Positions 1-22,081 of a DNA stretch of 22,657 nt are shown piece by piece. Within the stretch, counting starts at the first letter, position 1. Each line of letters opens with the position of its first letter. The position numbers and the translations under genes were made by a program. The stretch is from positions 1-22,657 of the forward strand of contig JBEKZX010000023.1 of the NCBI GenBank assembly GCA_049509455.1, in the 5' to 3' direction. Origin of the DNA: Conexivisphaerales archaeon (GTDB lineage Archaea > Thermoproteota > Nitrososphaeria > Conexivisphaerales > DTJL01). Under the pieces are notes generated by a model. The model was not told where the DNA came from, made no database searches, and worked only from the letters and a program-made list of their open reading frames with translations.

Positions 1-194
1 ACGAGCTTCAGGCCGAACTCCGAAGCGAGAGACCCTGTCAATTTGAGGACGTCAAGGTAGCCCCTGCCGAGGAGGCGCTTGAGCTCCCAGCCCTTGAGGC
101 CAGGCTGGAAGTGGCGCTGGTAGAGCAGTGTCGTAAGGCCCTTCAAGGCCTTCTCCCTGATCTCCTGCGTGTCCTTGTCCTGTTCCTGTGTCAC
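1..194 (-). CDS. Partial CDS (3' end beyond window): probable winged-helix KITE-like subunit (ScpB/Nse3-MAGE-like) of the SMC operon
   Basis: Not in the ORF track; translated by hand from GTG at 194: VTQEQDKDTQEIREKALKGLTTLLYQRHFQPGLKGWELKRLLGRGYLDVLKLTGSLASEFGLKL, open to the window edge. A GGGTGAT SD-like motif overlaps the kleisin stop. An alternative GTG at 203 overlaps that stop as GTGA. The KITE identity is inferred from gene position and from the LL...P....EL..L....Y..VL.......FGL.L pattern. Confidence 0.6.
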   Translation of the reverse strand, partial: MTQEQDKDTQEIREKALKGLTTLLYQRHFQPGLKGWELKRLLGRGYLDVLKLTGSLASEFGLKL

Positions 195-199
195 CCATA

Positions 200-928
200 T
201 CACCCTAGTGAAATCGCAACGGACCTGTCGACGTTGCCGTCCGCAGCCGTTATGAGATAATCCGAAGTCGACGGATCATAGCGGAGGGCGAACGCCCCCC
301 TCATGCAGAGGTGGGCAAGAGAGTAGGTCTCCTTGAGCTTCTCGGCCCCCTGGAAGTCGCCCGCGAACTCCTTGAAGGGAAGGGGGCCTTCGGTAAGCCT
401 CCGGCTGACCCTGAGGAATGTGGACTGGAGGCGCCCTTCAAGCTCCTGGGGGTCCATCCTGATGGTCTCATAGTCGGTCCCTTGGTCAGCTAGTGCCAGC
501 GGCCCCAGCCGGGCGAGGGAGCCCCATCCGTAGAGCTGCACCCAGTAGTCGGCGGCTTCGAGCAGCCTCGAGGTGGGCATCAGCTTCGCGGCGGCCGGGG
601 GATGGTGCGCCTCCCCCAGCGCCCCGGCGATGTCAGAGACGCTAAGGGACATCAGCTTGGAGGTCAGGAGCCCCGGGTCCACCTGGAAGGTCGTGAGCTG
701 GAAGGTGAGCCATTCGTCCTGCAGGCCGACGACCTTGCTGACCGCGTTTATGGCCTGGGCGTCGGCGAGGAGGTCCTGCCTCCCAAGTTCCTTGAGGTCC
801 TTCTTCAGCCTCCTCAGTATGGGCTTGACCTCCACAGCGAAGGGATCTCCTCCCTGGTCCTTGAGGTCATCAGGGAGCGAAGCCACCCTGAGCCTGTACT
901 CCTTCGCGTCACTCGACCTGGCTGACAC
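200..928 (-). CDS. ScpA-like kleisin, 242 aa
   Basis: N-terminal DPFAVEVKPIL...DLLADAQAINAVSKVVGLQDEWL resembles the ScpA N-helical domain (DPWDIDI...DL...A..L). C-terminal LPFKEF...ETYSLAHLCMRGAFALRYDPSTSDYLI resembles the kleisin C-terminal winged helix. The GTG start overlaps the SMC gene end by 20 nt. Confidence 0.7.
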   Translation of the reverse strand: MSARSSDAKEYRLRVASLPDDLKDQGGDPFAVEVKPILRRLKKDLKELGRQDLLADAQAINAVSKVVGLQDEWLTFQLTTFQVDPGLLTSKLMSLSVSDIAGALGEAHHPPAAAKLMPTSRLLEAADYWVQLYGWGSLARLGPLALADQGTDYETIRMDPQELEGRLQSTFLRVSRRLTEGPLPFKEFAGDFQGAEKLKETYSLAHLCMRGAFALRYDPSTSDYLITAADGNVDRSVAISLG

Positions 929-2840
929 CCTTGGCCACCTTGACCTGCGAAGCCATAGCCACCTTCTGGACCATTATGTAGTGAGCGGATTCGTCGTAGA
1001 ACGCCGGCGAGCCCGGCGTTATGACGAGGTACTGCACCGACCTGTCCGCCTTGAAGTAGTCGTGGAGGGCCCTGATGAATGTCTCGCGGCTGGAAGGGTC
1101 CATGTGCACGTCGAACTCGTCCACGGCCCTGAACGGGGAGATGATGTGCTCCTGGAGGGCGAGCAGGAAGGCGGTGACGGCCGAGCTCCGCTCGCCTCCG
1201 CTCTGAGTGTACGCGTCCAGCGGGACCAAGTCTTGTCCCCTGAAGGCCACTTGGATTTCGAGGCCAGCCTTGAGTGGGTCGTCCTCTCCGACAATCCTCA
1301 CTCTTCCGCTGCCGCCGATCAGAGAGAGCATCTTGCCGTAGCTCTCGTTGACCCCGGAGACGAGTCCGTCCAGTTGCTTGCGCCACACCTTGAACCTCTC
1401 GTTGACCTCCTTGAGGGTGACCTCCTTGTTCTCCTTCAGCTTGTCCAGCTTCCCGGAGAGGTCCTGTATCCTAGCCTGGAAATCGCGGTAGATCTGCTCG
1501 GCCTCCTGAGGGATGTCACCCAGCTGGACCAGCTGCGCTTCGTCCACCTTGATGACAAGTTGGACGTCGCCCAGGCTCCTCGTAGAGGTCACCCGGGGGC
1601 CGAGGGCTTCGGCCGCAGACTTCGCCGCCACCAGCTCTTCCTGCGACGAGACCTGCTGCCCTTCGAGCGCCTTCAGCTCCCTTTTCTTCTCGTTGAGGCG
1701 GTAGTCCAATACGGCGACCTTCTCTCTCGACGCGGCGTATGCCTCGACCTTGTCGGGGAACTTGGAGTTCTCGACGCCCAGACCCCTTTCGACGGAGGAG
1801 ATTTCGTCCTCCAGCGTCTTGACCCTCCCCTGTCCAGAGCCGAGCACCTTCTCGACCTCCTTGGCAAGGTCCTTCGGAGCGTCCTGCAGCGCGGCCTTCA
1901 GAGAGCCGTATGACGAAGAATCATGTTGAATCGTCAGCAGGTCACCGCGCAGCCTGGAAAGGCCCCTCTCTCCCTTGAGCAGCAACTCGAGGGCATCGGC
2001 GATGGCCTTGGACCGTTCCTGGACGTCTCCCTGCCCTTCGGCCAGCTTCGTCGTCATTTCAGCGATGGTCGATTCGGCCTCCTTGATGCGCTGTGCGATG
2101 GAGGCGAGCTTCTCCTCCTCTCTTGAGACCCTGCACCACACTTCTTCCAGCCTGAACCTTGTGAGCTCCTCGCGAAGACCCCGGATTTTCACGCTCTTTT
2201 CATAGTTCTCCTGCCAGCGCGCCAAGGTGGTCTTCGCGGTCTCCAGCTCCTTCTTCTTCTCCTCCTCCTCGGTCATGATGGAATCGAGCCTGCCCTTGGC
2301 CTCCAGCAGGCTCGCCCTGTACGACGCGAGCCCGGCAGCATCTTCCACCATGGCTAGCTTCTCTTCGGGCCTGACCACGCTGAATGTGTCTCCGAGGCCC
2401 TGTTGCATCATTATGAGCATGTTGTCGGGGTTGAGCCCCAGCTTCCCCAACGTCTCCACGACGGCCTGCTTGTCCACCTCCTTGAAGTCGATCTCGAACC
2501 AGTAGGTTCCGTCCTTTCGAATGTACCTGGAGAGATGTATCGTGTCGGCCCTGAAAGGGAGAGGCCTCTTCCCCTTGACGAGAGAGTTGTCCAAGAGGAG
2601 CGTCACGCGGGAGATGTCCCTACCTCGCTTGACAAGGTCGCTGAGCTTTCGCGACCTCTCTGTAGACGCCTGGCCGAGGGCCACCGAGATGCCCAGGAGG
2701 ATGCTGGACTTCCCTGCACCGTTCGGGCCCATCACGACGTTGAGCCCCGGCTTGAGCAGGACGCGCCCGTAGTCGTAGCTCAGGAAGTTCTCAAGGATGA
2801 CCTCCTTGATGAATGGTCGGCCCTCCTCCACCTTCTCCAA
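909..2840 (-). CDS. SMC-family ATPase, compact SMC5/6-like, 643 aa
   Basis: Walker A GPNGAGKS, Q-loop MMQQG, coiled coils, LGDIPQEAEQIY kink motif, signature QSGGERS, Walker B/D-loop PFRAVDEFDVHMD. TTG start, with an in-frame TAG three codons upstream. Confidence 0.92.
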   Translation of the reverse strand: MEKVEEGRPFIKEVILENFLSYDYGRVLLKPGLNVVMGPNGAGKSSILLGISVALGQASTERSRKLSDLVKRGRDISRVTLLLDNSLVKGKRPLPFRADTIHLSRYIRKDGTYWFEIDFKEVDKQAVVETLGKLGLNPDNMLIMMQQGLGDTFSVVRPEEKLAMVEDAAGLASYRASLLEAKGRLDSIMTEEEEKKKELETAKTTLARWQENYEKSVKIRGLREELTRFRLEEVWCRVSREEEKLASIAQRIKEAESTIAEMTTKLAEGQGDVQERSKAIADALELLLKGERGLSRLRGDLLTIQHDSSSYGSLKAALQDAPKDLAKEVEKVLGSGQGRVKTLEDEISSVERGLGVENSKFPDKVEAYAASREKVAVLDYRLNEKKRELKALEGQQVSSQEELVAAKSAAEALGPRVTSTRSLGDVQLVIKVDEAQLVQLGDIPQEAEQIYRDFQARIQDLSGKLDKLKENKEVTLKEVNERFKVWRKQLDGLVSGVNESYGKMLSLIGGSGRVRIVGEDDPLKAGLEIQVAFRGQDLVPLDAYTQSGGERSSAVTAFLLALQEHIISPFRAVDEFDVHMDPSSRETFIRALHDYFKADRSVQYLVITPGSPAFYDESAHYIMVQKVAMASQVKVAKGVSQVE

Positions 2841-2866
2841 CGTCCCCTATCCACTGATTCAGCTGG

Positions 2867-2873
2867 TAATAAA
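2867..2873 (-). promoter_or_regulatory. Putative TATA box (TTTATTA) of the SMC operon
   Basis: AT-rich box ending 26 nt upstream of the TTG at 2840, the spacing typical of archaeal leaderless or short-leader transcripts. Confidence 0.55.
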
Positions 2874-2882
2874 CCGTTATGG

Positions 2883-3464
2883 ATGACAGATATGACCAGT
2901 AGAAAGCCGAGTTTAGGTGTCGTGGACATAAGAGACAGGGAGAACGTCAGGAAGGCCGACGCGAAGGCAAGGGAACTGGGCGATGGAGACGCCATGAGGC
3001 GGTTCGTTTCCAAGTATGGGTCGGTCGGCACGAAGGCCATATACACGAACGCCATCGCCCTCTACTTCCGCTGGCTGCGAAAGCTAGGAATCACCATGAC
3101 CCCTGACGAGATGGTCCTTGACAATCTGAAGTGTGTCTATGAAAGCAACGCCACCGAGGTCGCTACGAAACGAAAGCACACGGATTGGTTGGACAGGTAC
3201 GTGAACGGCGAGCTGGTGAAAGAGGGAATCGCTGAGAACACCAGGCATGGGATGGCGGCGGCGATCAAGATGTTCTACAAGCGGAACGACTCCCCCCTCT
3301 TCGACGACGACCGCGACAAGCGTAGGAAATCCAAGCGAAGAACCCCCATGCTTCACGGCGGGTCTAGACAGAAGCAATACGGGACTTCTGGCCCTCGCAA
3401 CAGGGCGAAGGCCAGGGTGTTGAATAGCCAGCGGCCTAGCAGAGCTTCGTTGACAACTGGCTAG
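2883..3464 (+). pseudogene. Truncated tyrosine recombinase/integrase-like ORF (core-binding domain only)
   Basis: This is the real part of track ORF 2403..3464 (ATG 2883 or 2892). SVGTKAIYTNAIALYFRWL and ENTRHGMAAAIKMFYKRN resemble the helical core-binding domain of integrases. After PLF (about 3300) the frame becomes low-complexity and has no R-H-R-H-Y catalytic motifs. Confidence 0.55.
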
Positions 3465-6756: not shown

Positions 6757-7956
6757 CTACTTCTTCAGCAGCGCTTCCGTGGACTCCTTCTTAATCCATC
6801 TGATGTTTCCACTGATGTTAATCTGGACCGGGCAGATCTCGTTGCAGGCGTCACACTCGAGGCAGAAGTAGGTCAGAGGCTCGGCGGCGTCCCTTCCTTC
6901 GGTTATCGCCGTCCAGAGCAGGCCCACGGCGGCCGTGTATGTGGAGCCTCCCCACGTGGGGCCGTCGACCGCAAACGTCGGGCACACCAGCTGGCATGCG
7001 CCACACCTTATGCAACGCAGGGCGTCCCACAGCGGCGTCTTCAGAGCTTCGAGCCTGCCGTTGTTCACGAGCACCACGTGCATCTCCTTCGAACCCTGAG
7101 CGGGCCTCACGAGCGTCTTCTCGATGTCCCGAGTGCCGCTGGGGCCCGCGGAAAGGTTGACGTAGGTGGGGACAGGCGAGCCTCCGTAGTACCCCTGCAA
7201 GAGGGCAGTCTTGACCGCGTCCAGCGTCGTGGGGACGACCTTCTCTATCCCGCCGACCACGATGTTCACCGGTGGAAGCGAGCTGGTCAGCCGGATGTTC
7301 GCCTCGTTCTCCACGGTCACCACGGTCCCGTCGGCCGCCGAGATGGCGTTGATCCCTGTTATGCCCACCTGCGCGGCGAGGAGCTTCGTGCGGAGGAACT
7401 CTCTCGCTGCCGCCACCATGGTGGGGAGGTCGTTGGGGTCGAACGTCTTCCCGAACTTCTCCTTGAATATCTCGGCGACCGCTTCGCGAGGGACGTGAAG
7501 GGCCGGCGAAATCATGTGGGCCGGCTTCTCTCCCCTAAACTGAATGATGAGCTCTCCCAGGTCCGTCTCCCATACCTCGTTGCCCCTCTCCTGGAGATAG
7601 TGGCGTATGCCGATCTCTTCGGTCACCATGCTCTTGGACTTGACGACGACCTTGCCCGTGCCCACGAGCTTGTATATGATGTCCAGGGCGTCCTGCTTCG
7701 TGTTGGCGTAGTAGGCGAGGACGCCGTTGGCCTGAAGTGCTTCCATCGCCTGCTTGTAGAGCTCCTCCATGCGCTTGACGTCGTAGTCCTTGACGGACTT
7801 AACCTCCGTGCGAAGCTGGACGACGTCGGCCCTATCTTTGACCTTGTCGTAGTTCTTGACGTAGCTGTCCATTCCTCTCGAGATGCCCGTCCGCATCGCC
7901 TTGTCTCCAAGGGCCTGGTACATCTCCTTCTTGACTTCGAGGAATGTCTTAGCCAT
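6757..7956 (-). CDS. lutB: LutB/LldF/YkgF-like protein (LUD domain plus two 4Fe-4S motifs)
   Basis: KSKSMVTEEIGI, WETDLGELIIQ, HMISPALH, SGTRDIE, CIRCGACQLVCP and CLECDACNEICP motifs; AGGTGAT SD at 7962-7968. Confidence 0.88.
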   Translation of the reverse strand: MAKTFLEVKKEMYQALGDKAMRTGISRGMDSYVKNYDKVKDRADVVQLRTEVKSVKDYDVKRMEELYKQAMEALQANGVLAYYANTKQDALDIIYKLVGTGKVVVKSKSMVTEEIGIRHYLQERGNEVWETDLGELIIQFRGEKPAHMISPALHVPREAVAEIFKEKFGKTFDPNDLPTMVAAAREFLRTKLLAAQVGITGINAISAADGTVVTVENEANIRLTSSLPPVNIVVGGIEKVVPTTLDAVKTALLQGYYGGSPVPTYVNLSAGPSGTRDIEKTLVRPAQGSKEMHVVLVNNGRLEALKTPLWDALRCIRCGACQLVCPTFAVDGPTWGGSTYTAAVGLLWTAITEGRDAAEPLTYFCLECDACNEICPVQINISGNIRWIKKESTEALLKK

Positions 7957-7962
7957 CCTATA

Positions 7963-8925
7963 TCACCTTAGGACCTCCAGCAGGTCGAGTGTCTGAAGCC
8001 CGGTCTTCGCCTCCACCCTCGTAAAGTTCGCCAGACAGATGGGGCAGGCCAGGATGGCCTTGTCGGCCATCTGCTTCAACTCGGCGGCCCTCTTGATGGT
8101 GATTTCGTTCGAGACTTTGGGGGCGATGTTCTCGATGGGCCCGCCGCAGCAGAACGTGAAGTTGCGCGTCCTGATGGGCTCGGCGACCTCGGCGCCCGCC
8201 TGCTCGAGCATGGCCCTGGAGTTCTTCCAGAGGCCCAGTTTCCTCGCCAAGAGGCAAGGATCATGGATAGTGAACTTCTGCCCCTTAAGGGAGTCCTTCG
8301 CGACGGCGACGGCAGGGTCGACCACTTCGAGATAGTGCCTTACGTCTACATCGTAGTCCTTTATGACCTCAGGGTAGAGCAGCTTGAGGGCCACGGTGGA
8401 ATGTGGGTCCATCGTGATGACCTTCCTGACGCCGTGCTTCTTGAACCTCGCATACACCTCACGGGCCTGCTCTTCGAAGACCCAGTCGATGCCCATGTCG
8501 TGGAAGAGCACGCCCGAGTAGAGCTCGTCGGCTCCGAGGTAGCTCACCTCCACGCCGCTCCTCTTCAGGAGGGAAACGACGTTCACGATGATCTGGCTGA
8601 AGCGCTTCTTGTCGCCTGCGGTCATGGCGGCATATGCCGAGCTGACATCGAGGCCTATGCTGCTCAACGCCCGAAACACCCTGAAGCCAGCACCTCCTAC
8701 GCTGGAGGACTCGAGCCTGTCGAGACCTGCCACGAAAGCGTTGATGAAGGGGACCATCTGGTAGAGACCTCCCGTGTAGATTATGGTCCCTGTGTCGGCT
8801 GGGAGGTTGAGCCCTTCCGACCAGGCCGTAAATTCGGATGTCTTGAGGCCTACGGGGTTGGTCGTCTTCTTCCAGTTATCTATGAGCGTGCTGAAAACGT
8901 CTTTCCTGTCCAGCAAGACGGGCAC
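7963..8925 (-). CDS. CCG-domain (Fe-S)-binding protein (LutA/GlpC/HdrD-like)
   Basis: HDPCLLAR, CCGGP and ACPIC cysteine motifs in the C-terminal half. CTTAAA at 8943-8948 fits a TTG start at 8916 better than the GTG at 8925. Confidence 0.85.
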   Translation of the reverse strand: MPVLLDRKDVFSTLIDNWKKTTNPVGLKTSEFTAWSEGLNLPADTGTIIYTGGLYQMVPFINAFVAGLDRLESSSVGGAGFRVFRALSSIGLDVSSAYAAMTAGDKKRFSQIIVNVVSLLKRSGVEVSYLGADELYSGVLFHDMGIDWVFEEQAREVYARFKKHGVRKVITMDPHSTVALKLLYPEVIKDYDVDVRHYLEVVDPAVAVAKDSLKGQKFTIHDPCLLARKLGLWKNSRAMLEQAGAEVAEPIRTRNFTFCCGGPIENIAPKVSNEITIKRAAELKQMADKAILACPICLANFTRVEAKTGLQTLDLLEVLR

Positions 8926-8979
8926 TGATGCCCCGAGCCGGATTTAAGAGTATTGGGAGGCTCTGTTCGAGGCCAAGCG

Positions 8980-9756
8980 CTACTGGTCTCTCTTCTGCCT
9001 CACTTCGTAGAGGAAGAGGTCCCTGAAGCTTTCGTCCAGCTTAGCGTGGTCCAACTTCTCGTATGTCTCGATGCTCCCAACGTCCAGCCAGTAGTCCTTG
9101 GTGAGGAAGACGTTCACTTTCTTCTTTGCCTCGATCATGCCGGGGATGAGCTGCCCCATGATGTCCAGCTCGTTCGTGCCCTTGGAGACCTCCTCAAGCG
9201 CGATGAGGGAGTCGCCCTTGAGGGCGAGTATCCCTATCCCGACATCGATGTCGATGACGGGCTTCTCCTCCATCTTGACAAGCCGGTTCCCTTTCACCTT
9301 GGCAACCCCCACCGGAAGCTTGTAACCCTGCGCCACCGCCAGCGTAGCATCAGAGCCTGAAGAGGTGTGCTGGCCCAGCAAGCGCTTCAGGTCCATCCGC
9401 GTGAGTATGTCCCCGTAGTAGATTAGGAGCTGGTCATCTTCGTTCAAGACGCCCTGCCGGTAGGCGTTGAGGACGGCGCCCCCATTGCCTTTCAAAGATG
9501 GGTCATCGGCGACGTAGGAAAGCTCCATGGAGACGGGAGCCCCAGATTTGAAGTAGTTCTGGATCTGCTCCGCCTTGTAGCCGGCAAGGAGGACAGCCCT
9601 GTCGATGCCGTTGTACTTCAGCGATCGCAGAATGTACTCCAAAATGGGCTTCTGTCTCTCGCCGACCGGGAGCATGGTCTTCTGGAAATAGTAGGTCAGC
9701 GGCCTGAGACGGCTTCCCAGTCCTCCGCAAAGGACCACTGCCTTGACGCTGCCCAT
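8980..9756 (-). CDS. Sugar-phosphate nucleotidyltransferase family protein
   Basis: KAVVLCGGLGSRLRPLT...K.MLPV...KPILEYI signature, YGDI and EKP motifs. ATG 9756 preferred over 9768 because TTTTAT (9782-9787) lies 25 nt upstream of it. Confidence 0.9.
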   Translation of the reverse strand: MGSVKAVVLCGGLGSRLRPLTYYFQKTMLPVGERQKPILEYILRSLKYNGIDRAVLLAGYKAEQIQNYFKSGAPVSMELSYVADDPSLKGNGGAVLNAYRQGVLNEDDQLLIYYGDILTRMDLKRLLGQHTSSGSDATLAVAQGYKLPVGVAKVKGNRLVKMEEKPVIDIDVGIGILALKGDSLIALEEVSKGTNELDIMGQLIPGMIEAKKKVNVFLTKDYWLDVGSIETYEKLDHAKLDESFRDLFLYEVRQKRDQ

Positions 9757-9872
9757 GATGCTGCCCATAAAGGCGCAGACGATAAAAGAGTTACGTCAGC
9801 CCCAGGAGCTCCTGACAATTAATGCTTGCGCTGGGCACCCTTTGTTGAAGAAGGCGAAGGGGCTTGCGCGCC

Positions 9873-10610
9873 CTAGACGACGGGCGGGCCGACATTGAAG
9901 TGCTCAGCCTTCCGGATGAGATCGGCAGGCACCTTCTGGCTCCCCATGTAGCTTGCGAACTTCTTCTTGATGAAGTTCTCCCACAGGTCGCGGTCGAGGT
10001 AGAAGACCCTCGCCCCTCCGAGCTCTGTCTGGAACTCCGGGTACGGCCGGGCCTTGTGAGCCCACTGGAGCCCGATGATCCTGTACCCATTGTAGCTTTC
10101 GAAGCACGCCTCCCACGTCTCAGCTCCGAGGTAGTCGAAGGCATATTCGGCCTTCGCAAAGTAGAGGGCTGGGCCCGAATCCGTCCCTCTCATGAAGCTC
10201 ATGGTGTGCAGAGAGTAGGCTACCTTTTCGTTGAACATCCTGGCGTTGGCAAGACCGGCGAGCTGCCCGTCGATGATGCCTATCAAAGAATATGCGTCCT
10301 TGATCCTGTGAACTTTCTGTGAGAGCACCTCCCCGTACGTCCGGACACCGACGATGTCGTAGAAGTCCTTTGGAATGAACATGTAGGGCTTTATGGCCTC
10401 GAGGACCTGGTCGTATTCGTCTTCCCTGAGAGACCTCACTACCATCTGCTCGCCACCCCTGAGCGAAACGACCTTGGGCTTCCAGGGCCTTTCGGTCATG
10501 ATTTTCATCTCTGGGACGCCGCATCGTAGGACCGGCTCCATGTCCTCCACCTTCAGCTTGTGCTCCAGGTAGGAGACTGGCTCCGGAGGCTGGTAGAATG
10601 ACGAACTCAT
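9873..10610 (-). CDS. Conserved-looking hypothetical protein with probable GNAT-like acyltransferase fold
   Basis: The beta/alpha pattern LIGIIDGQLAGLANARM...SLHTMSFMRGTDSGPALY resembles GNAT motif A (RGxxxG). TTATAT box at 10646-10651. Confidence 0.6.
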   Translation of the reverse strand: MSSSFYQPPEPVSYLEHKLKVEDMEPVLRCGVPEMKIMTERPWKPKVVSLRGGEQMVVRSLREDEYDQVLEAIKPYMFIPKDFYDIVGVRTYGEVLSQKVHRIKDAYSLIGIIDGQLAGLANARMFNEKVAYSLHTMSFMRGTDSGPALYFAKAEYAFDYLGAETWEACFESYNGYRIIGLQWAHKARPYPEFQTELGGARVFYLDRDLWENFIKKKFASYMGSQKVPADLIRKAEHFNVGPPVV

Positions 10611-10659
10611 TTCGGTTGCCCTCTTTGAGCGCCTATTGCGACTTCATATAAGCGTTTCC

Positions 10660-10674
10660 TTGCAGAAAATGCAA
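10660..10674. promoter_or_regulatory. 15-bp inverted repeat TTGCA-GAAAA-TGCAA, candidate Lrp/AsnC-type operator
   Basis: Perfect 5-bp arms around an A-rich 5-nt core, in the divergent intergenic region just upstream of the GNAT gene's BRE/TATA. Confidence 0.45.
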
Positions 10675-10744
10675 CGGAACCGTCCGCCGCCCGAGCACGA
10701 CCTAGATTTATTAAACAGAAAGGCGCTGCACTTTTGTAAATCAG

Positions 10745-11173
10745 TTGACGAAATATTCATCTGACTCCAAACATGGGCCTGGCAGAGTGAAGGTTCTGGT
10801 CACCAAGGTGGGGCTGGACGGCCACGACCGGGGGCTCAAGGTGGTGGCGAAGGGGCTCGCTGACGCTGGCCTCGAAGTCGTCTACTTGGGCGTCCATCAG
10901 ACCGTGGCCAACGTAGTCGCGACCGCCCTGCAGGAAGACGTGGACGTAGTCGCCGTGAGCATCCTGTCGGGTTCCCACATGGAGCTAGCGGCGGACCTAG
11001 TCAAGGCGATGAAAGCCAAGGGACTGGACCGGCCGCTGGTCTTCGGGGGGGTCATCCCCAGGACCGACATAGAACCCTTGAAAAAGTTGGGTATCTCGGC
11101 TGTCTACGGACCAGGTGCTTCGCTGGCGGTCGTGGCCAAGGCCGTCCGCGACGCCGCAAAGGGGGGAAGCTAG
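10745..11173 (+). CDS. Methylmalonyl-CoA mutase small subunit (cobalamin-binding domain)
   Basis: KVGLDGHDRG (DxHxxG), S-I-L-S-G-S-H and VFGGVIP motifs. TTTATTAAA at 10707-10715; TTG start. Confidence 0.93.
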   Translation: MTKYSSDSKHGPGRVKVLVTKVGLDGHDRGLKVVAKGLADAGLEVVYLGVHQTVANVVATALQEDVDVVAVSILSGSHMELAADLVKAMKAKGLDRPLVFGGVIPRTDIEPLKKLGISAVYGPGASLAVVAKAVRDAAKGGS

Positions 11174-11590
11174 TTGCCGATTACCCCTACAAAGGTGGAC
11201 CACGTTGGCATCGCCGTGAGGAGCGTCGATGAAGCGTGCAAGTTCTACGAAGAAACGCTGGGGCTCAAGTTGGTCAAGAAGGAGACGGTGGAGGAGGAGA
11301 AGGTCCGGATCGCCATGTTCAAGGTCGGGGAGAGCTACGTTGAGCTGCTCGAGCCGCTTTCCGCCGATAGCACCATCGCTAGATTCATCGAGAAGCGGGG
11401 CGAAGGCATACACCATATGGCGCTCGGCTACGACGACGTCAAGGAGGCGCATGACTTCTGCAAGATGAAGGGCGCCTTCATGGTCTATCCGGAGCCGGAG
11501 GACCTGAAGGGGGACAGAATCGTCGACTTCGTCCACCCGAAGTCGACGCACGGCGTCCTGCTTGAGATAGTGAAGAGGTACGGCGAATAG
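11174..11590 (+). CDS. mce: Methylmalonyl-CoA epimerase (VOC family)
   Basis: DHVGIAV, ELLEP, RGEGIHHMAL and FVHPKSTHGVLLEIV motifs; sandwiched between the two mutase subunit genes. Confidence 0.93.
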   Translation: MPITPTKVDHVGIAVRSVDEACKFYEETLGLKLVKKETVEEEKVRIAMFKVGESYVELLEPLSADSTIARFIEKRGEGIHHMALGYDDVKEAHDFCKMKGAFMVYPEPEDLKGDRIVDFVHPKSTHGVLLEIVKRYGE

Positions 11591-11594
11591 GCAT

Positions 11595-13292
11595 TTGAAC
11601 AGGACCAAGCGCCCCTCAAAGAAGGAGAAGGCAGGAACGTCCCTGTCGGCCAGGTCGTCGGAATGGGAGTCGGAGGTGCTCAAGCCCTACCTGGCTACAT
11701 CACCCGAGAGGGCCCTTCAGTTCCCATCGGAGGACGGAACACCTGTCCCCAGGCTGTCCACGCCAGCTACCTTAGATGAACACGGCTGGAGCTACGACAA
11801 AGACCTGGGCTTCCCGGGAAGCTTCCCTTTCACCAGAGGCGTCTACCCGACGATGTACCGGGGAAGACCCTGGACCATAAGGCAATACGCGGGATTCGGG
11901 TCGGCCGAGGACACCAACGGACGCTACCGTTACCTGCTCAAGGCCGGCCAGACCGGTCTGAGCGTCGCCTTCGACCTGCCGACGCAGCTAGGACTGGACC
12001 CTGACTGCGAGCTGGCCTACTACGAAGTCGGGAAGGTGGGCGTCTCCGTCTCGACGTTGCAGGAAATGAAGCTGGTCTTCGACTCTATTCCGCTCAGCAA
12101 GGTGTCCACCTCCATGACGATCAACGCCACGGCCATGGAGCTCCTAGCACTCTATGTCGCGGCAGCTCAGGCCCAGTCCATCGAGCCCTCCGCCCTCCGG
12201 GGGACGGTGCAGAACGACATCTTGAAGGAATATATCGCCAGAAACAACTTCATCTATCCTCCAGGGCCGTCGATGCGATACTCCACTGACATCATTATGC
12301 ACTGCGCGAAGGCCATGCCCCAGTGGAATTCGATTAGCATAAGCGGCTACCATTTCGAGGAAGCGGGGGCCACACCGTCGCAAGAAGTGGGCTTCACCCT
12401 AGCTGACGGCATCGAGTACACCAGGACGCTGACCGAGAAGGGGGTCAAGGTCGATGACTTCGCCCCCCGCTTGTCGTTCTTCTTCGCATCGAGGACGAAC
12501 CTCATCGAGCAGGTGGCCAAGTTCAGGGCCGCGCGCAGGATGTGGGCTAAGATAATGAAGGAGCGGTTCGGTGCCAGGGACCCGAAGTCACAGATGCTCA
12601 GATTCCACGCCCAGACGGCGGGCGTGACCATGACGGCGCAGCAGCCAGAGGTCAACATCATTAGGACGACGCTTCAGGCCTTGGCGGCGACCTTGGGCGG
12701 CGCCCAGTCCCTTCACGTCAACTCCTACGACGAGGCCATCTGCCTCCCCACTGAGAAAGCGGTGAAGCTTTCGGTCAGGGTTCAACAGGCTTTGCTGCTG
12801 GAATCAGGGATTGCGGACTCGGTGGACCCCCTGGGCGGTTCGTACCTCCTCGAGGAGCTAACCTCCTCTGTCGAGGAAAAGGCGTGGAAGATAGTGAATG
12901 CGGTCGAGAAGATGGGAGGGATGGTCAAGGCCGTCGAGAGAGGCTTCCCTCAGCAGGAGATAGCGCGCAGCGCCTACGACTACCAGCTCAAAGTGGAGAA
13001 GGGGGTGATACCCGTCATAGGGGTCAATGTCGCGACGGAGGAGGGTGAAGCTCCGTACGAGCCTCTGAAGGTGGACCCTTCCTCTCGCGAAAGGGTGCTG
13101 GCGAGGGTGAAGGAGTACAGAGGGTCCAGAGACCAGACGCTGGTCCGTTCTGCGCTGCGTCAGCTGGAGAAGGCGGCCTCCAACACTGAAGTAAACCTCT
13201 TCCCGCCGGTGCTGGAATGCATCAGATCAAGGTGCACCGTCGGGGAGATTAGCGGGACCCTCAGGGAGACCTGGGGAGAATGGAGACAGTAG
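11595..13292 (+). CDS. Methylmalonyl-CoA mutase large (catalytic) subunit
   Basis: FPFTRGVYPTMYRGRPWTIRQYAGFG, GLSVAFDLPTQ, QNDILKEYIARN, SISGYH and LHVNSYDEA motifs. Confidence 0.95.
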   Translation: MNRTKRPSKKEKAGTSLSARSSEWESEVLKPYLATSPERALQFPSEDGTPVPRLSTPATLDEHGWSYDKDLGFPGSFPFTRGVYPTMYRGRPWTIRQYAGFGSAEDTNGRYRYLLKAGQTGLSVAFDLPTQLGLDPDCELAYYEVGKVGVSVSTLQEMKLVFDSIPLSKVSTSMTINATAMELLALYVAAAQAQSIEPSALRGTVQNDILKEYIARNNFIYPPGPSMRYSTDIIMHCAKAMPQWNSISISGYHFEEAGATPSQEVGFTLADGIEYTRTLTEKGVKVDDFAPRLSFFFASRTNLIEQVAKFRAARRMWAKIMKERFGARDPKSQMLRFHAQTAGVTMTAQQPEVNIIRTTLQALAATLGGAQSLHVNSYDEAICLPTEKAVKLSVRVQQALLLESGIADSVDPLGGSYLLEELTSSVEEKAWKIVNAVEKMGGMVKAVERGFPQQEIARSAYDYQLKVEKGVIPVIGVNVATEEGEAPYEPLKVDPSSRERVLARVKEYRGSRDQTLVRSALRQLEKAASNTEVNLFPPVLECIRSRCTVGEISGTLRETWGEWRQ

Positions 13293-13295
13293 GCG

Positions 13296-14198
13296 TCAAA
13301 ACCCCATTGACCTGCCCAGGTTCGAGGTGAAGGAACCATGGTCCAAATCGTCCAACACGACCGAAGACGCCACTAGCATTCCCACCGACATGTCCAGCCC
13401 GGAGGAATGGCCCCTGGAGACGACATCCTCTAGGCCCAGGAGAAGCCCGTCCCCATCACCCGCGAAGAAAGACGAAACGACAGCCTCCACATCTTCGTCC
13501 ATCAGGTCGTGCTGCATATAGTCGAGCAGCCGGGCGCTGGCCCAGCTGGTCCTCCTTTCCGCTTCGGCGATATCCATGATAAGGGGCGCCCGACGGAAGA
13601 ACCTGTTTCCCGCGTTGTACATGCAGAGGAAGCCGCTGACGAAATCGTCGAAAGAGGGGGTGAAACCCGACCCTATCCCCAGAAGCCCATAAGCAGACTC
13701 CATGAATAGGGATTCATCAAAAGTGGTGGGGCGGACGAAGGCGTCCATGAAGAAGGACCGGTAGCGGTCGAACGCCTTGCCACCGGCGTCCAAGATGCTT
13801 TCCTTCAGGTCGAAGACCACTAGTAGGCACGCAGCAGCCAGAAGCTTCCCCTTTACGGACACGACCTTCTCTTTCTTGGCCTCCTCTGGCCGCAAGGAGT
13901 TAGTGAACCTTCCTTCAGTGATCGCTACCCTGAGCGGGCCGACGGACAGGACGCCTCCGCCGAACTCGGCCCTCTCACCAACCTTGACGGCCTCCTGGAA
14001 ATCCGGCCCCCCGGTTCCGATGTTCACGTTAATCGGACTCCTGACTTCCTTTCCTGTGACATTAATCAGGTCGCCGGACGCTGTGCGGAGGTAGAACGAA
14101 TTGGGGAATACATCCGCTACAGCGGGAGGCTCAACGCTAGTGCTCAGCCACTGAAAGGCATTCTCCCCAGTGCACCAGGCCGACAGGTTCGTGGACAA
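13296..14198 (-). CDS. ylbF: DUF2877 family protein (YlbF/AllH/YahE-like)
   Basis: LLGIGSGFTPSFDDF (GxGxGxTPSxDD) and GHSSGLD motifs; lies directly downstream of the DUF1116 gene. Confidence 0.85.
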   Translation of the reverse strand: MSTNLSAWCTGENAFQWLSTSVEPPAVADVFPNSFYLRTASGDLINVTGKEVRSPINVNIGTGGPDFQEAVKVGERAEFGGGVLSVGPLRVAITEGRFTNSLRPEEAKKEKVVSVKGKLLAAACLLVVFDLKESILDAGGKAFDRYRSFFMDAFVRPTTFDESLFMESAYGLLGIGSGFTPSFDDFVSGFLCMYNAGNRFFRRAPLIMDIAEAERRTSWASARLLDYMQHDLMDEDVEAVVSSFFAGDGDGLLLGLEDVVSRGHSSGLDMSVGMLVASSVVLDDLDHGSFTSNLGRSMGF

Positions 14199-14203
14199 CT
14201 TCC

Positions 14204-15490
14204 TTAGAGGGCGTACCTCTCAGCGTAGCCCTTAAGGGCTTTCTTGAACATCTCCATGGGGAAGACGACGAGCCCGGCGCCTACTTGGCCTACGCCCGCC
14301 TCCTTGCTGGCGACGCCCGTGTTGATGTTGGGGGTGATGCCCGTCTTGACGACCTTCCTGATGTCGACGCCTGTGGGCGTGCCCGCAAAGTCGAGGTTAG
14401 GTATGAGGAAGTACCTGTGCTTGGCGTAAGTGATCTCATACATCTTCTTGGTGATCTCGACTGCGGCCGCGACGCTGCCGCCCACCCATGAGACGATGGC
14501 GGGTGCGGTGGCCATAGCGAAGCCTCCGAAGCCAGCAGTCTCAGTGATAGAGCTGTCTCCGAGGTCGGGATTGGAGTCCTTCGCCGTAAAGCCTGGGAAC
14601 CAGAGGCCGTTCACCATGGGGGCAGGCGCCGTGAACCATTCCTCCCCGAGGCCGCTCACTCTGATGCCGATGTCGGTGCCGTTCCGGGCCATAGTGGTCA
14701 CTATCGTGCTATACTTGATGCCGTGAGCAGCCATCGTCATGGCCTTGGCCGAGGCCATCCCGAGGTTCAGCGCCGTAAAGTTGTTGGCGTTCATGAACAC
14801 CAAAGCCTTCCTGATCTCCTCCCTGTCTCCCCCTGAGGCGACTAGGTATTGAGCGAGCTCCCTGACGAGGAGGCTGGTGGTGGCGACGTATCTGTTGTGG
14901 CAATCGTCTCCCATGGTGAGACCCTGAGCGATCAGGGGCTTGAAGGCGAATCCCGGTTTCTCCTTCTTCAACTCCTTCAAACCTGCGAGGAGCGCAGGCG
15001 CGAAGCTGTCCCGGATATAGGCCAGCCGTTTCAGCACCTCCTCACCGTAGGCTCCATACCGGAGCACCTTCCCTATCCCTTCGTTGAAGTTGCTGTAGGA
15101 CTTCAAGCCGAACTTCCTGTCCGTGACCTCGAAGACCGGCATCGAGGGCGATATGATCCCCGCCATAGGCCCGACGGCGTCGTGGTGGTGACAGGGCTCG
15201 AACTGGACGACCCCGCTCCGGATGAGCTTCTCCGCCTCGGCGTCGTCCTTCGCCCATCCCTCGTAGATGCAAGCCCCCAAGACGGCGCCCTTAACTGGAC
15301 CGGACATCCTCTCCCAAGTTATAGGGGGGCCCGCGTGAAGAAGGAGGTGGTCCCTCATTCCTGGTATGGCCGTGATCGCAGGGACGACGTCCGTCCAGAA
15401 GGGATCGGACTCCATCATCCGATCTACGGCGACCTGATTGGCCTTCTCAACTTCGTCTTTCAAATTGACAGGAGAACTCAACCGTCGCAC
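14204..15490 (-). CDS. ylbE: DUF1116 family protein (YlbE/AllG/YahG-like)
   Basis: LLHAGPPITW, PCHHHDAVGPMAGIISPSMP, NEGIGKVLRYGAY, GDDCHNR and GDSSITET.GFGGFAMA motifs. TTTTATAT box at 15515-15522, 24 nt before the GTG. Confidence 0.92.
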   Translation of the reverse strand: MRRLSSPVNLKDEVEKANQVAVDRMMESDPFWTDVVPAITAIPGMRDHLLLHAGPPITWERMSGPVKGAVLGACIYEGWAKDDAEAEKLIRSGVVQFEPCHHHDAVGPMAGIISPSMPVFEVTDRKFGLKSYSNFNEGIGKVLRYGAYGEEVLKRLAYIRDSFAPALLAGLKELKKEKPGFAFKPLIAQGLTMGDDCHNRYVATTSLLVRELAQYLVASGGDREEIRKALVFMNANNFTALNLGMASAKAMTMAAHGIKYSTIVTTMARNGTDIGIRVSGLGEEWFTAPAPMVNGLWFPGFTAKDSNPDLGDSSITETAGFGGFAMATAPAIVSWVGGSVAAAVEITKKMYEITYAKHRYFLIPNLDFAGTPTGVDIRKVVKTGITPNINTGVASKEAGVGQVGAGLVVFPMEMFKKALKGYAERYAL

Positions 15491-15690
15491 CGAATGAAGA
15501 TTTTCGCCATCTCAATATAAAAGCGTTGCCCAGATGAAGGCGAGACATGACCAAATGACCAATCCTATTTATATGGACCTGCACTAACTGCAGTATCTCT
15601 TCGACCTGACTTTCCGACGAAACGTTCACCGGCCTTGTGCAAACAGTTTAAATGGGAGTCTCAGGCTTAGAGATTCTGCAGAACTTCGCC

Positions 15691-17307: not shown

Positions 17308-17317
17308 AGTGATTAAG

Positions 17318-17491
17318 ATGTCAGAGGGCGCCAAGAAGCTGTTCCGATCGGAGCTCAAGGTGATCAACGTCGGCCTAGAGATCTTCCGCGACGACCTGGC
17401 TTCTCAATCGGTCAAGGTGGTCCAAGTGAATTTCACACCGCCCGCCAAGATTGAGAAGGAGTATGAAGACATCCTTTCGAAGCTGATGTAG
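17318..17491 (+). CDS. Stand-alone small FdrA/YahG-associated module, about 57 aa
   Basis: LKVINVGLEIFRDDLASQSVKVVQVNFTPPA matches the VINxGL..F..EL......V....W.P module recalled at the C-terminus of E. coli FdrA and the N-terminus of YahG. GAGTGAT SD-like motif before ATG 17318 (alternative GTG at 17309). Confidence 0.8.
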   Translation: MSEGAKKLFRSELKVINVGLEIFRDDLASQSVKVVQVNFTPPAKIEKEYEDILSKLM

Positions 17492-17560
17492 GTCGTGCTC
17501 TGACGAGTCGATCTGCCGACGCGGGGCGTTCAGACTCCGTCCTTAAGCTTCAAGAATACG

Positions 17561-17599
17561 AAAAAAGTTTCGGGGCGCGCGAGATCGCTCCCGCGCGCC
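17561..17599 (-). terminator. Hairpin plus T6 tract between convergent operons
   Basis: GGCGCGCG (17574-17581) pairs with CGCGCGCC (17592-17599). A6 at 17561-17566 gives a U-tract downstream of the 2Fe-2S gene on the minus strand. Confidence 0.6.
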
Positions 17600-17609
17600 T
17601 TTGGCGGAC

Positions 17610-21357: not shown

Positions 21358-21505
21358 AAACTTCGCCTAGACTTGGAATGAAACAGTCGCAAACAGAATA
21401 AAAACGTATCGTCCGGGAATGGGTTACGAAGTCAACCGAAGCGAAAACGGGACAAAGCAGTCCGTCTCCCGCGGGGGCTCATGATGATACGCGCCAAGGA
21501 GTTTC

Positions 21506-21943: not shown

Positions 21944-22020
21944 GAGATATCGGTCTCTCGAGAGAAATATTTCTGTATTTAAGCCTTCCCGCGACCTGAA
22001 GCGGGGAGAGCGTCTCGCAC

Positions 22021-22071
22021 CTAGGGGGGTCAAGAAAGCCCCTAGCTGACGAATTCAGAAACGAGAAAAAA
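22021..22071 (-). terminator. Oligo-T tract and hairpin downstream of the cyclase gene
   Basis: A6 at 22066-22071 (T6 on the minus strand) about 10 nt after the stop, followed by a CTAGGGG/CCCCTAG stem at 22021-22045. Confidence 0.45.
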
Positions 22072-22081
22072 CCGATGTAGT

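Follow-up and report, generated by a model that had tools for sequence, protein, structure and literature searches.

A predicted SMC5/6-related SMC-kleisin-kite operon in a peat Nitrososphaerota genome

Described relatives and layout of the operon

The closest described relatives of the operon analyzed here are themselves archaeal. SMC5/6-related archaeal SMCs have already been reported (Yoshinaga & Inagaki 2021, bioRxiv 10.1101/2021.05.15.444277 = PMC8665677), and operons with an Nse4-related kleisin and an Nse1/3-like kite are described in TACK archaea (van Hooff, Raas, Tromer & Eme, bioRxiv 10.1101/2024.01.07.573240, 2024/25), with Thaumarchaeota, Bathyarchaeota, Verstraetearchaeota, and Crenarchaeota as the carriers named in the published accounts. 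The window, by which we mean the whole 22,657-nt stretch of DNA that was analyzed, comes from a Nitrososphaerota (Conexivisphaerales-like) genome from peat. The operon type is known and the window is one further member; it has all defining features of the published archaeal complex, including a separate condensin/cohesin-related operon in a TACK archaeon, with no difference in kind. The original prediction held that the kleisin and kite partners of archaeal SMC5/6-related proteins are poorly defined. Because van Hooff et al. describe exactly such operons, the novelty that it implied is absent. It also counted ClsN, Sph, and arcadin-4 among SMC5/6-related proteins, whereas the account in PMC9389158 assigns ClsN and Sph to a separate zinc-hook family (ASRP) and nests arcadin-4 in Rad50.

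With eukaryotic Smc5/6, the operon shares the QSGGER, PFRxVDE..MD, and ITP motifs of the ATPase head, a predicted C-terminal winged helix of an Nse4-type kleisin, and a predicted Nse3/MAGE-like kite of tandem winged helices. The eukaryotic complex, however, combines Smc5 with Smc6 and Nse1 (which has a RING) with Nse3, and also has Nse2 and Nse5/6, whereas the archaeal operon has one SMC gene, whose product presumably forms a homodimer, one kite gene whose 192-aa product has no room for a RING, and none of the genes for Nse2 or Nse5/6. Smc-ScpAB has the same three-part build (SMC, kleisin, and kite dimer) and the same operon logic, but the window proteins have no matches to SMC_hinge, SMC_ScpA (PF02616), or SMC_ScpB (PF04079). 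MukBEF, MksBEF, and Wadjet JetABC(D) likewise consist of SMC, kleisin, and kite, and the kite model aligns with JetB and MukE, but this likeness ranks below that to Nse3/Nse1. There is no JetD/MksG nuclease in or adjoining the operon, and neither the kleisin nor the kite matches JetA/JetB in PADLOC.

The three overlapping minus-strand genes proposed originally agree with the open reading frames at 909..2840, 200..928, and 3..203. The features of the operon are:

2866..2873, minus strand: TATA-like box TTTATTAC, ~30 nt 5' of the TTG of gene 1
909..2840, minus strand: gene 1, predicted SMC5/6-related archaeal SMC ATPase of 643 aa, TTG start; N-terminal head at residues 1-170, modeled hairpin arm at 172-507, C-terminal head to 643
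2706..2729, minus strand: Walker A motif GPNGAGKS of gene 1, residues 38-45
1581..2135, minus strand: variable distal arm of gene 1, residues 236-420, with the turn at A321-P322, no hinge, and no CxxC
1185..1205, minus strand: ABC signature QSGGERS of gene 1, residues 546-552, aligned with tqsGGERa of yeast Smc5
1098..1136, minus strand: Walker B / D-loop PFRAVDEFDVHMD of gene 1, residues 569-581, aligned with pfrvvdeinqgmd of yeast Smc5
1014..1022, minus strand: ITP at the place of the H-loop of gene 1, residues 607-609, common to Smc5 (flITPk in the yeast Smc5 alignment)
200..928, minus strand: gene 2, putative Nse4-type kleisin of 242 aa, GTG start
3..203, minus strand: gene 3, first 67 codons of a predicted Nse3/Nse1-like kite (tandem winged helix), GTG start, open at the left end of the window

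The overlap between genes 1 and 2 is 20 nt long (909..928), and that between genes 2 and 3 is 4 nt (GTGA, 200..203). A TATA box was predicted before the operon, and TTTATTAC is present there and invariant in all four aligned upstream regions (the window and loci L003, L004, and L005); judged from this conservation, it probably drives transcription of the operon as a nearly leaderless mRNA. In the window, an insertion of ~545 bp lies directly 5' of the box, which is nonetheless kept.

The window begins at base 1 of its contig (C57), and gene 3 is therefore truncated by an assembly break rather than by biology. Residues 109-192 of its product are encoded at the end of another contig of the same genome (C16), leaving ~41 codons missing between the two, and contigs from four other peat metagenome runs extend beyond window position 1. 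To the left of the window, where a look for a second kite or a nuclease had been suggested, there is neither; the end of contig C16 has only the kite remainder and, next to it, an Lhr helicase gene in convergent orientation. The remainder of the window consists of metabolic and housekeeping genes.

Assignment of the three subunits

Translation of gene 1 confirms both head motifs named in the original prediction, QSGGERS and a stretch of the PFRxxDEFDVxMD type. All 67 family members have the Walker A residues G38, P39, N40, G41, G43, K44, and S45 without exception. Across the SMC family, S547, G548, G549, and E550 of the signature, D574-D581 of the Walker B / D-loop, and I607 and P609 of the ITP motif are invariant as well, and T608 is nearly so. 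The corresponding Walker B stretch of the canonical Smc in the same genome is FYLLDEIDAALD. Gene 1 matches SMC_N of Pfam (6.6e-27). As a single sequence, its best PDB match is yeast Smc5 (4.7e-35), and the profile of its family matches Smc5 (7.4e-62) and then Smc6 (2.5e-59). The genome's canonical Smc matches archaeal and bacterial Smc and Smc1-4, with no Smc5/6 among its 46 PDB matches at E<=1e-10. The best NCBIfam model for gene 1 is SMC_prok_A, with 194 bits versus a cut-off of 729. In a Foldseek search with the AF2 model (pLDDT 86.2), the top match is a canonical archaeal Smc head (5xei, 1.1e-22), followed by Smc6 and Smc5. Two other identities were tried and rejected: ASRP, at 47.4 bits versus an NCBIfam cut-off of 300 and with no CxxC, and Rad50, for which models reach 32-81 bits versus cut-offs of 700-1087. 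Among open frames of >600 aa in the genome, SMC_N matches are restricted to the canonical Smc, gene 1, an 836-aa ORF, and an 862-aa ORF.

Phylogeny also points to Smc5. In an IQ-TREE analysis of 42 rows and 820 columns (18 rows from the family of gene 1; arm columns included; root set on the genome's two SMC_N-bearing ORFs), the family is recovered with 100/100 support. It groups with two fungal Smc5 and one metagenome protein (100/99), apart from canonical SMC and Smc1/3/4, in a tree whose Smc5/6 side is represented by two closely related fungal Smc5 and no Smc6. Forcing the family together with canonical SMCs changes lnL by -18.9, with a marginal p-AU of 0.035 for a group defined after tree inspection. 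The tree supports the family as probable sister to Smc5 and, in line with the original prediction, not as a member of canonical Smc or Rad50. A tree in which the eukaryotic SMCs all form one clade was not rejected in the analysis reported by van Hooff et al. (p-AU 0.317; bioRxiv 10.1101/2024.01.07.573240).

The sequence of gene 2 has no Pfam, NCBIfam, or PDB match of its own, and its assignment comes from its family (A1, 72 sequences). Nse4_C of Pfam is found in 39 of the 72 members (best 7.4e-9), and the family profile matches yeast Nse4 best in the PDB (6.1e-6), with human EID3 at 1.3e-3. Against the N- and C-domains of ScpA, the same profile gives values of 0.08-0.13, the N-terminal domain matching ScpA-N only at E 0.08, and hhalign finds no significant similarity between the kleisin family and the ScpA-like protein of this genome (E 0.12). 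Those neighbors of gene 2 in the ESM-Atlas that are named and carry a Pfam family are kleisins. ScpA-like N- and C-terminal domains had been read into this gene; the kleisin identity stands, but the family profile supports a putative Nse4-type rather than a ScpA-type kleisin.

Because only 67 residues of gene 3 lie within the window, the kite was modeled on the 192-aa protein from locus L003 of a 93%-identical relative; the 67-aa part is 92% identical to this protein over 65 aa. The AF2 model (pLDDT 84.8) has two winged helices only in its 192 aa. Foldseek ranks MAGE-G1/Nse3 (1.8e-6) and Xenopus Nse3 (4.3e-6) first, then Nse1, MukE, JetB, and ScpB, and VIA-align gives Z-scores of 13.6 over 171 aa for Xenopus Nse3, 9.7 over 164 aa for JetB (8as8_C), and 8.6 for ScpB. 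Sequence evidence for the kite is weak, as 7 of the 70 family members match MAGE, the best of them at 0.002. The model of the relative agrees with the original guess of a winged-helix KITE subunit and supports a predicted tandem winged-helix kite closest to Nse3/Nse1.

All three assignments support the original reading of a Smc5/6-like ATPase with its kleisin and KITE, and the canonical Smc-ScpA-like-ScpB operon is separate, on contig C13 of the same genome. This canonical Smc has 1179 aa and matches SMC_hinge (1.1e-18); the ScpB of this operon (3.5e-28) is the one match of PF04079 (SMC_ScpB) in the genome. PF02616 (SMC_ScpA) has no match anywhere in the genome and thus misses even the ScpA-like gene of the canonical operon. 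From homology and synteny, it is highly probable that the three genes of the window form the operon of an archaeal SMC5/6-related SMC complex. By analogy with solved SMC-kleisin-kite complexes, two copies of the single SMC would engage their heads on two ATP, and one kleisin would bridge the pair, its N-terminal helices contacting the neck of one SMC and its C-terminal winged helix capping the second SMC. The central part of the kleisin would carry a kite dimer that helps to clamp DNA onto the heads, and ATP hydrolysis would power cycles of DNA capture.

The arm of the short SMC

The arm of gene 1 is predicted to be a plain antiparallel helical hairpin of ~150 residues per strand and ~22 nm. 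In the AF2 model, a helix at residues 172-320 is followed by a turn at 321-322, a helix at 323-413, short breaks, and a helix at 447-507; the tip (residues 311-340) is of low confidence, with a pLDDT of 59-64, and a model of a single chain would not reveal an interface between two SMCs. Across the family, the distal arm is 116-237 aa long, whereas the arm segments on either side of it have constant lengths of 70 and 66 aa. In hhalign comparisons of the arm mid-region, the probability of homology is 0.0 to the canonical hinge and 0.3 to the Smc5 hinge, while positive controls give 100 and 98.3, the latter for Smc5 hinge versus canonical hinge. The protein has a single Cys, and a zinc-hook CxxC is present in the middle third of 0 of 67 family members. 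With neither hinge nor zinc hook, the two SMCs would therefore depend on heads and kleisin alone to stay together, perhaps with contacts between the arms in addition. By comparison, the SMCs of eukaryotic Smc5/6 are ~1100 aa long and have a hinge. The main texts of the published descriptions of the archaeal complex mention neither a hairpin arm without a hinge nor an Lhr neighbor; their supplements may hold lengths or models.

Short SMC-type proteins without a hinge are described elsewhere. The ASRPs (ClsN/coalescin and Sph1/2) and Rad50 resemble gene 1 in their size (~600 aa), SMC-type heads, and hairpin arm without a hinge, but they differ in having a zinc hook, and no kleisin or kite partners are known to be described for them; published trees place ASRPs apart from SMC5/6-related SMCs (PMC9389158). 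"Hinge-less" oceanic SMC homologues (PMC12153180) also have SMC heads on a coiled coil without a hinge domain. In contrast to the family of gene 1, they are presented as a bacterial clade near Actinomycetes from ocean catalogues, and that report gives them no kleisin or kite partners and states no relation to Smc5/6.

Bathyarchaeia have a probable paralogue of the same head family that is ~1040 aa long and in which a CxxC resembling a zinc hook is conserved precisely halfway along the protein. Of its loci, L047 and L067 were inspected whole, and neither has a kleisin gene.

Distribution and possible functions

The gene order predicted from the window is conserved. Across 80 related loci, the kleisin gene follows the SMC gene in 73 and the kite gene is third in 70, with five of the ten misses cut by the end of the locus; each of the 70 loci has one kite match. 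Nitrososphaeria, Bathyarchaeia, Methanomethylicia, and Thermofilales all keep the trio side by side. Of 201 genomes sampled from the phylum, 108 have the Nse4-like kleisin, which is thus present in 49 of 94 genera and is near-universal in many families (e.g. 16 of 17, 9 of 9, and 8 of 8), a pattern expected of a vertically kept core gene and not of a patchy defence island. Both complexes are present in 79 of the 201 genomes, including that of the window, and the Nse4-like kleisin occurs without ScpB in 29. One genome of 1.5 Mb that is complete (G008) has no SMC-type match at E<=1e-20 other than the short SMC, and ScpB was not found in it. Together with the 29 genomes, this suggests that the short SMC is the sole SMC complex in some lineages. 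The Lhr helicase is a convergent neighbor in 35 of 63 loci.

For the function of the complex, we give an even chance to chromosomal genome maintenance linked to repair or replication stress. A role in general chromosome folding and segregation is conceivable, if doubtful; the complex would then be a second condensin, performing the same loop extrusion, folding, and segregation as Smc-ScpAB with no special link to repair. The invariant ATPase motifs are consistent with such a role, as are the 29 genomes with the kleisin and no ScpB and the sole SMC of G008. The co-occurrence of both complexes in 79 genomes argues for different jobs, however, and ~22-nm hinge-less arms, if modeled correctly, are unlike those of any studied loop extruder; the convergent Lhr repair helicase in many lineages also speaks against a second condensin. 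We consider it improbable that the complex restricts foreign DNA, acting against plasmids or viruses as do Wadjet/JetABCD and Lamassu, or Smc5/6 on episomal DNA. The likeness of the kite model to JetB and the weak PADLOC matches of the SMC to mad3 (3.2e-24) and LmuB (5.5e-19) would fit this role. The short hinge-less arms are reminiscent of LmuB. Restriction of viral episomes by Smc5/6 in humans, as reported in PMC10586767, is a further point in its favor. Set against these are the housekeeping content of the window, the core-gene pattern of distribution, a kleisin and kite with no PADLOC match, and the lack of a nuclease or other effector in or adjoining the operon.

A relationship other than to Smc5/6 is very improbable. 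The genes would then be a divergent duplicate of Smc-ScpAB, or the SMC would be of Rad50/ASRP type and drawn toward Smc5/6 by long-branch attraction. The NCBIfam and Foldseek results for gene 1, which favor SMC_prok_A (far below its cut-off) and a canonical archaeal Smc head, lean this way, as do the marginal AU support and the p-AU of 0.317 given by van Hooff et al. But three independent subunits agree, the SMC pointing to Smc5/6, the kleisin to Nse4 over ScpA, and the kite to Nse3/Nse1 over ScpB. The low ASRP and Rad50 scores and the lack of a CxxC also count against this alternative, and the two published phylogenies, as reported, concur with a relationship to Smc5/6.

An archaeal Smc5/6-like complex bears on the origin of the eukaryotic Smc5/6 repair complex, a point already in print on the basis of phylogenies and gene order, and offers a minimal SMC-kleisin-kite machine suited to in vitro study. 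To this, the window adds a peat Nitrososphaerota member with both operons, a model of a bare hairpin arm, a hinge test with positive controls, and counts of Lhr neighbors and ScpB co-occurrence. We tentatively suggest that the usual archaeal Smc5/6-like machine may be a natural "mini-SMC", with hairpin arms that have neither hinge nor hook, dimerized via heads and kleisin only and acting as the sole SMC complex in some lineages, and that the same head family may have given rise to the ~1040-aa CxxC paralogue in Bathyarchaeia. If so, the means of joining arms (nothing, a hook, or a hinge) would have been freely swapped within the Smc5/6 lineage, and a hinge-less, Lhr-associated repair complex may be near the form of the ancestor of eukaryotic Smc5/6.

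A conserved operon encodes an SMC with intact ATPase motifs, a kleisin, and a kite

The window starts at the first base of its contig, C57, in a 2.05-Mb genome of 140 contigs that is 95.5% complete. The operon at this end is a real feature, was read correctly, and is a further member of an already described kind. As the original prediction held, three minus-strand ORFs overlap, genes 1 and 2 by 20 nt and genes 2 and 3 by 4 nt (GTGA). Both SMC motifs quoted in that prediction are found in the translation of gene 1, and the TATA box it placed ahead of the operon lies ∼30 nt ahead of the TTG start.

Features of the operon and its upstream region
909..2840, minus strand: gene 1, SMC (ORF, 643 aa, TTG start)
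200..928, minus strand: gene 2, kleisin (ORF, 242 aa)
3..203, minus strand: gene 3, kite (ORF, 67 aa, open at the left end)
1185..1205, minus strand: QSGGERS motif (translation of gene 1)
1098..1136, minus strand: PFRAVDEFDVHMD motif (translation of gene 1)
2706..2729, minus strand: Walker A (translation of gene 1)
2873..2866, minus strand: TTTATTAC box
2883..3464, plus strand: 193-aa ORF of an insertion (ORF call)

The TTTATTAC box is unchanged in four of four aligned upstream regions (window and three relatives), despite an insertion of ∼545 bp just upstream of it in the window. The insertion (about 2880..3425) separates a PfkB kinase gene from the TATA box, is missing in three relatives, and occurs also in contigs from other peat runs. 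Searches of PHROGs and Pfam with its 193-aa ORF gave no match, and neither terminal or flanking repeats nor a second copy in the window's genome were found. Farther along, 6757..22639 holds genes of ordinary metabolism. LUD-type lactate utilization and AllG/AllH-like genes are present, as is a molybdenum hydroxylase of the CoxL/M/S type accompanied by CoxG, and a methylmalonyl-CoA mutase cluster includes a B12-binding subunit and an epimerase-like protein of glyoxalase fold. The window lacks tRNA genes.

Gene 3 is interrupted by the assembly. Only 67 of its codons are within the window, and they are 92% identical over 65 comparable residues to the full orthologue, 192 aa long, that a 93%-identical genome carries at L003:8623-9198. 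The extreme end of C16, a 3.9-kb contig of the window's genome, encodes residues 109-192 at 98% identity; thus, ∼41 codons are lost in an assembly gap. Contigs from four other peat metagenome runs reach as much as 715 nt beyond window position 1 and show no indels over the operon.

Kinship of the three subunits with Smc5/6

The gene 1 protein matches Pfam SMC_N (6.6e-27) and no Pfam hinge model, which alone is a weak negative because the two fungal Smc5 proteins retrieved for the tree also lack a match to PF06470. Searched singly against PDB sequences, it matches yeast Smc5 best (4.7e-35), then archaeal Smc (3.1e-26) and Smc6 (8.4e-19), and the profile of its 67-member family ranks Smc5 (7.4e-62), Smc6 (2.5e-59), and archaeal Smc (6.7e-53). 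The genome's canonical Smc, by comparison, finds archaeal and bacterial Smc (3.2e-89), followed by Smc2, Smc3, Smc1, and Smc4, with Smc5/6 absent among its 46 PDB matches at E ≤ 1e-10. QSGGER, PFRxVDE..MD, and ITP are common to gene 1 and yeast Smc5 in a pairwise alignment and are invariant or nearly so across the family, where the canonical Smc has SGGEKA and LDEIDAALD. In a Foldseek search with the AF2 model of gene 1, a canonical archaeal Smc head leads (1.1e-22), and 8 of the top 10 are Smc6 and Smc5 chains behind it. An hhalign alignment of the family with the genome's canonical Smc is confined to the N-head.

Membership of gene 1 in Rad50 or the ASRPs is rejected. NCBIfam models for SMC, Rad50, ASRP, and arcadin-4 all score far under their cut-offs, and none of the 67 family members has a CxxC in the middle third (the gene 1 protein has a single Cys). 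The original prediction erred in listing ClsN and Sph as SMC5/6-related, because these are zinc-hook ASRPs, a group set apart from SMC5/6-related SMCs in the sections covered of Yoshinaga et al. 2022 (PMC9389158).

To gather relatives for a tree, a 566-aa member of the family served as query. Ranking just behind long forms of the family itself were two fungal proteins (1.6e-24 and 1.2e-22), with canonical SMCs level at 1.9e-24. This search thus retrieved two fungal Smc5, one of them an orthologue by its PDB match (1.3e-141 to human Smc5), and no Smc6. The best named eukaryotic match among proteins of at least 1197 aa, P0060, proved to be Smc3 rather than Smc5/6. The careful IQ-TREE analysis used 42 rows and 820 columns, with arm columns kept and no Smc6 in the set. 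Rows comprised 15 short members and three long forms of the family, two Smc5, three unnamed proteins without a hinge Pfam match, 12 prokaryotic SMCs, five eukaryotic Smc1/3/4, and, as outgroup, two SMC_N ORFs of the window's genome (836 and 862 aa) assumed to be Rad50-like. The family is recovered at 100/100, and its sister is a group of the two Smc5 and one 1110-aa metagenome protein (100/99), the two together being separate from every canonical SMC. Forcing the family with canonical SMCs costs 18.9 lnL (p-AU 0.035), a marginal rejection of that arrangement, for a group defined post hoc from the tree. Together, the PDB ranking and the tree uphold the reading of gene 1 as a Smc5/6-like ATPase.

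The kleisin assignment of gene 2 is likewise sustained, through its family profile and not through the single sequence, which had no match in Pfam, NCBIfam, or PDB and whose close relatives are annotated as hypothetical in source records. In a family set (A1) of 72 sequences taken from related loci, 39 match Pfam Nse4_C (best 7.4e-9), and yeast Nse4 (6.1e-6) and human EID3 (1.3e-3) lead the matches of the profile to PDB. ScpA follows with weak, position-congruent matches, at 0.08 for its N-domain and 0.097-0.13 for its C-domain, and hhalign of the family against the genome's ScpA-like protein gives E 0.12. Pfam-bearing structural neighbors of gene 2 in the ESM Atlas are kleisins (Nse4/EID3, ScpA, and Rad21/Rec8; TM 0.28-0.39), a lead only because the TM scores are low and the gene 2 model is poor. 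The stops that seemed to interrupt kleisin matches in one genus turned out to be the normal termination codons of those genes.

For the kite, sequence evidence is weak: Pfam MAGE is matched by 7 of 70 members (best 0.002), and the profile reaches Xenopus Nse3 among PDB sequences at E 0.27. The predicted winged-helix KITE subunit is borne out by the AF2 model of the L003 orthologue (pLDDT 84.8), which has two winged helices. Foldseek against PDB ranks MAGE-G1/Nse3 (1.8e-6), Xenopus Nse3 (4.3e-6), and Nse1, then MukE, JetB, and ScpB. By VIA-align, the model is closest to Xenopus Nse3 (Z 13.6 over 171 residues), followed by chains from yeast Smc5/6 and Nse1/3/4 entries and one from the human MAGE-G1-NSE1 entry (Z 10.1-10.7), JetB (Z 9.7), and ScpB (Z 8.6).

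Arm architecture of the SMC family

SMC family members are 566-683 aa long (median 592). Head-proximal arm segments are fixed at 70 + 66 aa in 67 of 67 members, and the distal arm varies from 116 to 237 aa (187 aa in gene 1). The composition of the distal arm is arm-like, with an AELKRQM fraction of 0.60 versus 0.47-0.48 in two hinge controls. Compared with a canonical hinge profile built from 35 sequences, it has an hhalign probability of 0.0, and with the Smc5 hinge, 0.3; positive controls scored 100 (hinge half versus half) and 98.3 (Smc5 hinge versus canonical hinge, E 2e-14). In the AF2 model of gene 1 (pLDDT 86.2), helix 172-320 is followed by a two-residue turn (321-322) and helix 323-413, and after breaks at 414-422 and 441-446, helix 447-507 leads into the C-head. 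By our arithmetic (∼0.15 nm per residue), ∼149 residues per strand correspond to an arm of ∼22 nm. The arm tip has low confidence (pLDDT 59-64), and the model is a monomer, so a meeting of two arms is not visible in it.

Predicted hairpin arms without a hinge or hook are the sole fresh angle of this operon, and it is structural. Short arms or a missing hinge are not mentioned in the portions covered of the texts, supplements aside, of van Hooff et al. (bioRxiv 10.1101/2024.01.07.573240), Yoshinaga & Inagaki 2021 (PMC8665677), and Yoshinaga et al. 2022, where hinge passages are generic or, in the last, about ClsN. The only paper found on a "hinge-less SMC" concerns, in its consulted part, a bacterial ocean clade (PMC12153180).

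Bathyarchaeota carry a long form of the same head family (1017-1067 aa). It is present in whole loci (L047:2941-6060 and L067:1657-4860), as N-truncated genes (L060:166-2427 and L081:5206-7041), and among fetched proteins (P0133-P0141). The motif C-[DEN]-x-C-G-S followed by [QK]-W is conserved in 13 of 13 sequences and lies at relative position 0.51-0.53 in eleven full-length proteins, a mid-length location that suggests a zinc-hook-like arm tip. Hinge homology was not found in the long forms (probability ≤1), and they score only 54-93 bits with the ASRP model, whose cut-off is 300. In the tree, they nest within the short family, at 100/100 with the member from L046. Neither kleisin nor kite follows the long form in the two whole loci. 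In genome G202, a long form, a complete short form adjoining a kleisin, and a canonical Smc co-occur; in G201, G203, and G204, only part of the short form or of the kleisin is seen.

Distribution, neighbors, and inferred function

In the parts of these studies consulted, Yoshinaga & Inagaki 2021 defined an "SMC5/6-related aSMC" in Crenarchaeota, Verstraetearchaeota, Thaumarchaeota, and Bathyarchaeota, with a canonical SMC too in 44 of 80 carriers, and van Hooff et al. described SMC operons of TACK archaea, one kind of which has a Nse4-related kleisin and a Nse1/3-like kite. We found 229 relatives in one-genome-per-species contigs and used the best 80 loci, which by record titles represent Nitrososphaerota/Thaumarchaeota, Conexivisphaerales, Bathyarchaeota, Methanomethylicia, and Thermofilales. 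Among these best 80 of 229, a kleisin follows the SMC gene in 73, and a kite, always single, is third in 70, so the three-gene order proposed at the outset is kept. Five of the 10 kite-less loci end too early (L046, L057, L064, L070, and L080), four hold another SMC form (L047, L060, L067, and L081), and L066 has opposite-strand genes downstream of the SMC gene. Two or three opposite-strand genes lie between SMC and the kleisin-kite pair in L069 and L072. Across these Bathyarchaeia/Hecatellales loci (L069:789-3983, L072:6285-8221, and L066:962-4629), two to four such genes split SMC from kleisin-kite. In one genus of the phylum, genome G039 has a kleisin-kite pair without an upstream SMC gene (contig C7, L094:1863-3141); its short SMC is on another contig (C17:32097-33857), ∼10 kb from canonical Smc and ScpB genes, and the operon is therefore split.

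Downstream of the kite, on C16, an Lhr-type helicase gene (DEAD, Helicase_C, WH_Lhr, and DEAD_assoc) lies tail to tail with it.

Lhr-type helicase genes
C16, L093:778-3654, plus strand: window's genome (domain matches)
L003:9194-12070, convergent to the kite gene: 93%-identical genome

Among the best 80 of 229 loci, an Lhr relative is downstream in 37, immediately adjoining in 26, and convergent in all but two. Counting only loci with a kite and 1.5 kb or more of sequence past it, 35 of 63 have an Lhr relative. By record titles, these loci span Nitrososphaerota, Methanomethylicia, Bathyarchaeota, and Thermofilales. The neighbor is a hint, no more, of a link to repair, because genes in convergent orientation do not share a transcript and a common gene order is expected among kin.

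The window's genome also has a canonical operon (contig C13, L092:380-5091) encoding an Smc of 1179 aa that matches SMC_hinge (1.1e-18), together with a ScpA-like protein and ScpB (3.5e-28). The ScpA-like protein, 170 aa as called, has only a weak CNDH2_C winged-helix match (7.1e-4), and Pfam SMC_ScpA has no match in this protein or anywhere else in the genome. The Nse4-like kleisin profile is matched in 108 of 201 sampled genomes of the phylum and 49 of 94 genera; a family within the same class as the window has it in 0 of 26 genomes. Across the 201, 79 have both this kleisin and ScpB, 29 the kleisin only, 33 ScpB only, and 60 neither. General chromosome folding is a tentative, rather unlikely reading of the complex's function, favored by lineages in which it is the only SMC. 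In the complete 1.5-Mb genome G008, the short Smc5/6-like SMC is the sole SMC-type match at E ≤ 1e-20 and ScpB was not found; in its family, the kleisin is present in 16 of 17 genomes and ScpB in 0 of 17.

A role in defense is improbable: no effector was seen, kleisin and kite have no PADLOC match, the rest of the window is metabolic, and the distribution is like that of a core gene. Membership in Wadjet or Lamassu is rejected, given the missing effector and the lack of a PADLOC match for kleisin or kite.

The literature searched yielded no experimental study of an archaeal Smc5/6-like complex. By analogy with solved Smc5/6, Smc-ScpAB, and MukBEF complexes, the SMC, kleisin, and kite would assemble in a ring-like manner and may clamp DNA in an ATP-driven way. 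Kinship with Smc5/6, the Lhr neighbor, and coexistence with a canonical condensin point to repair-linked genome maintenance, which stands about an even chance of being the function of this complex.
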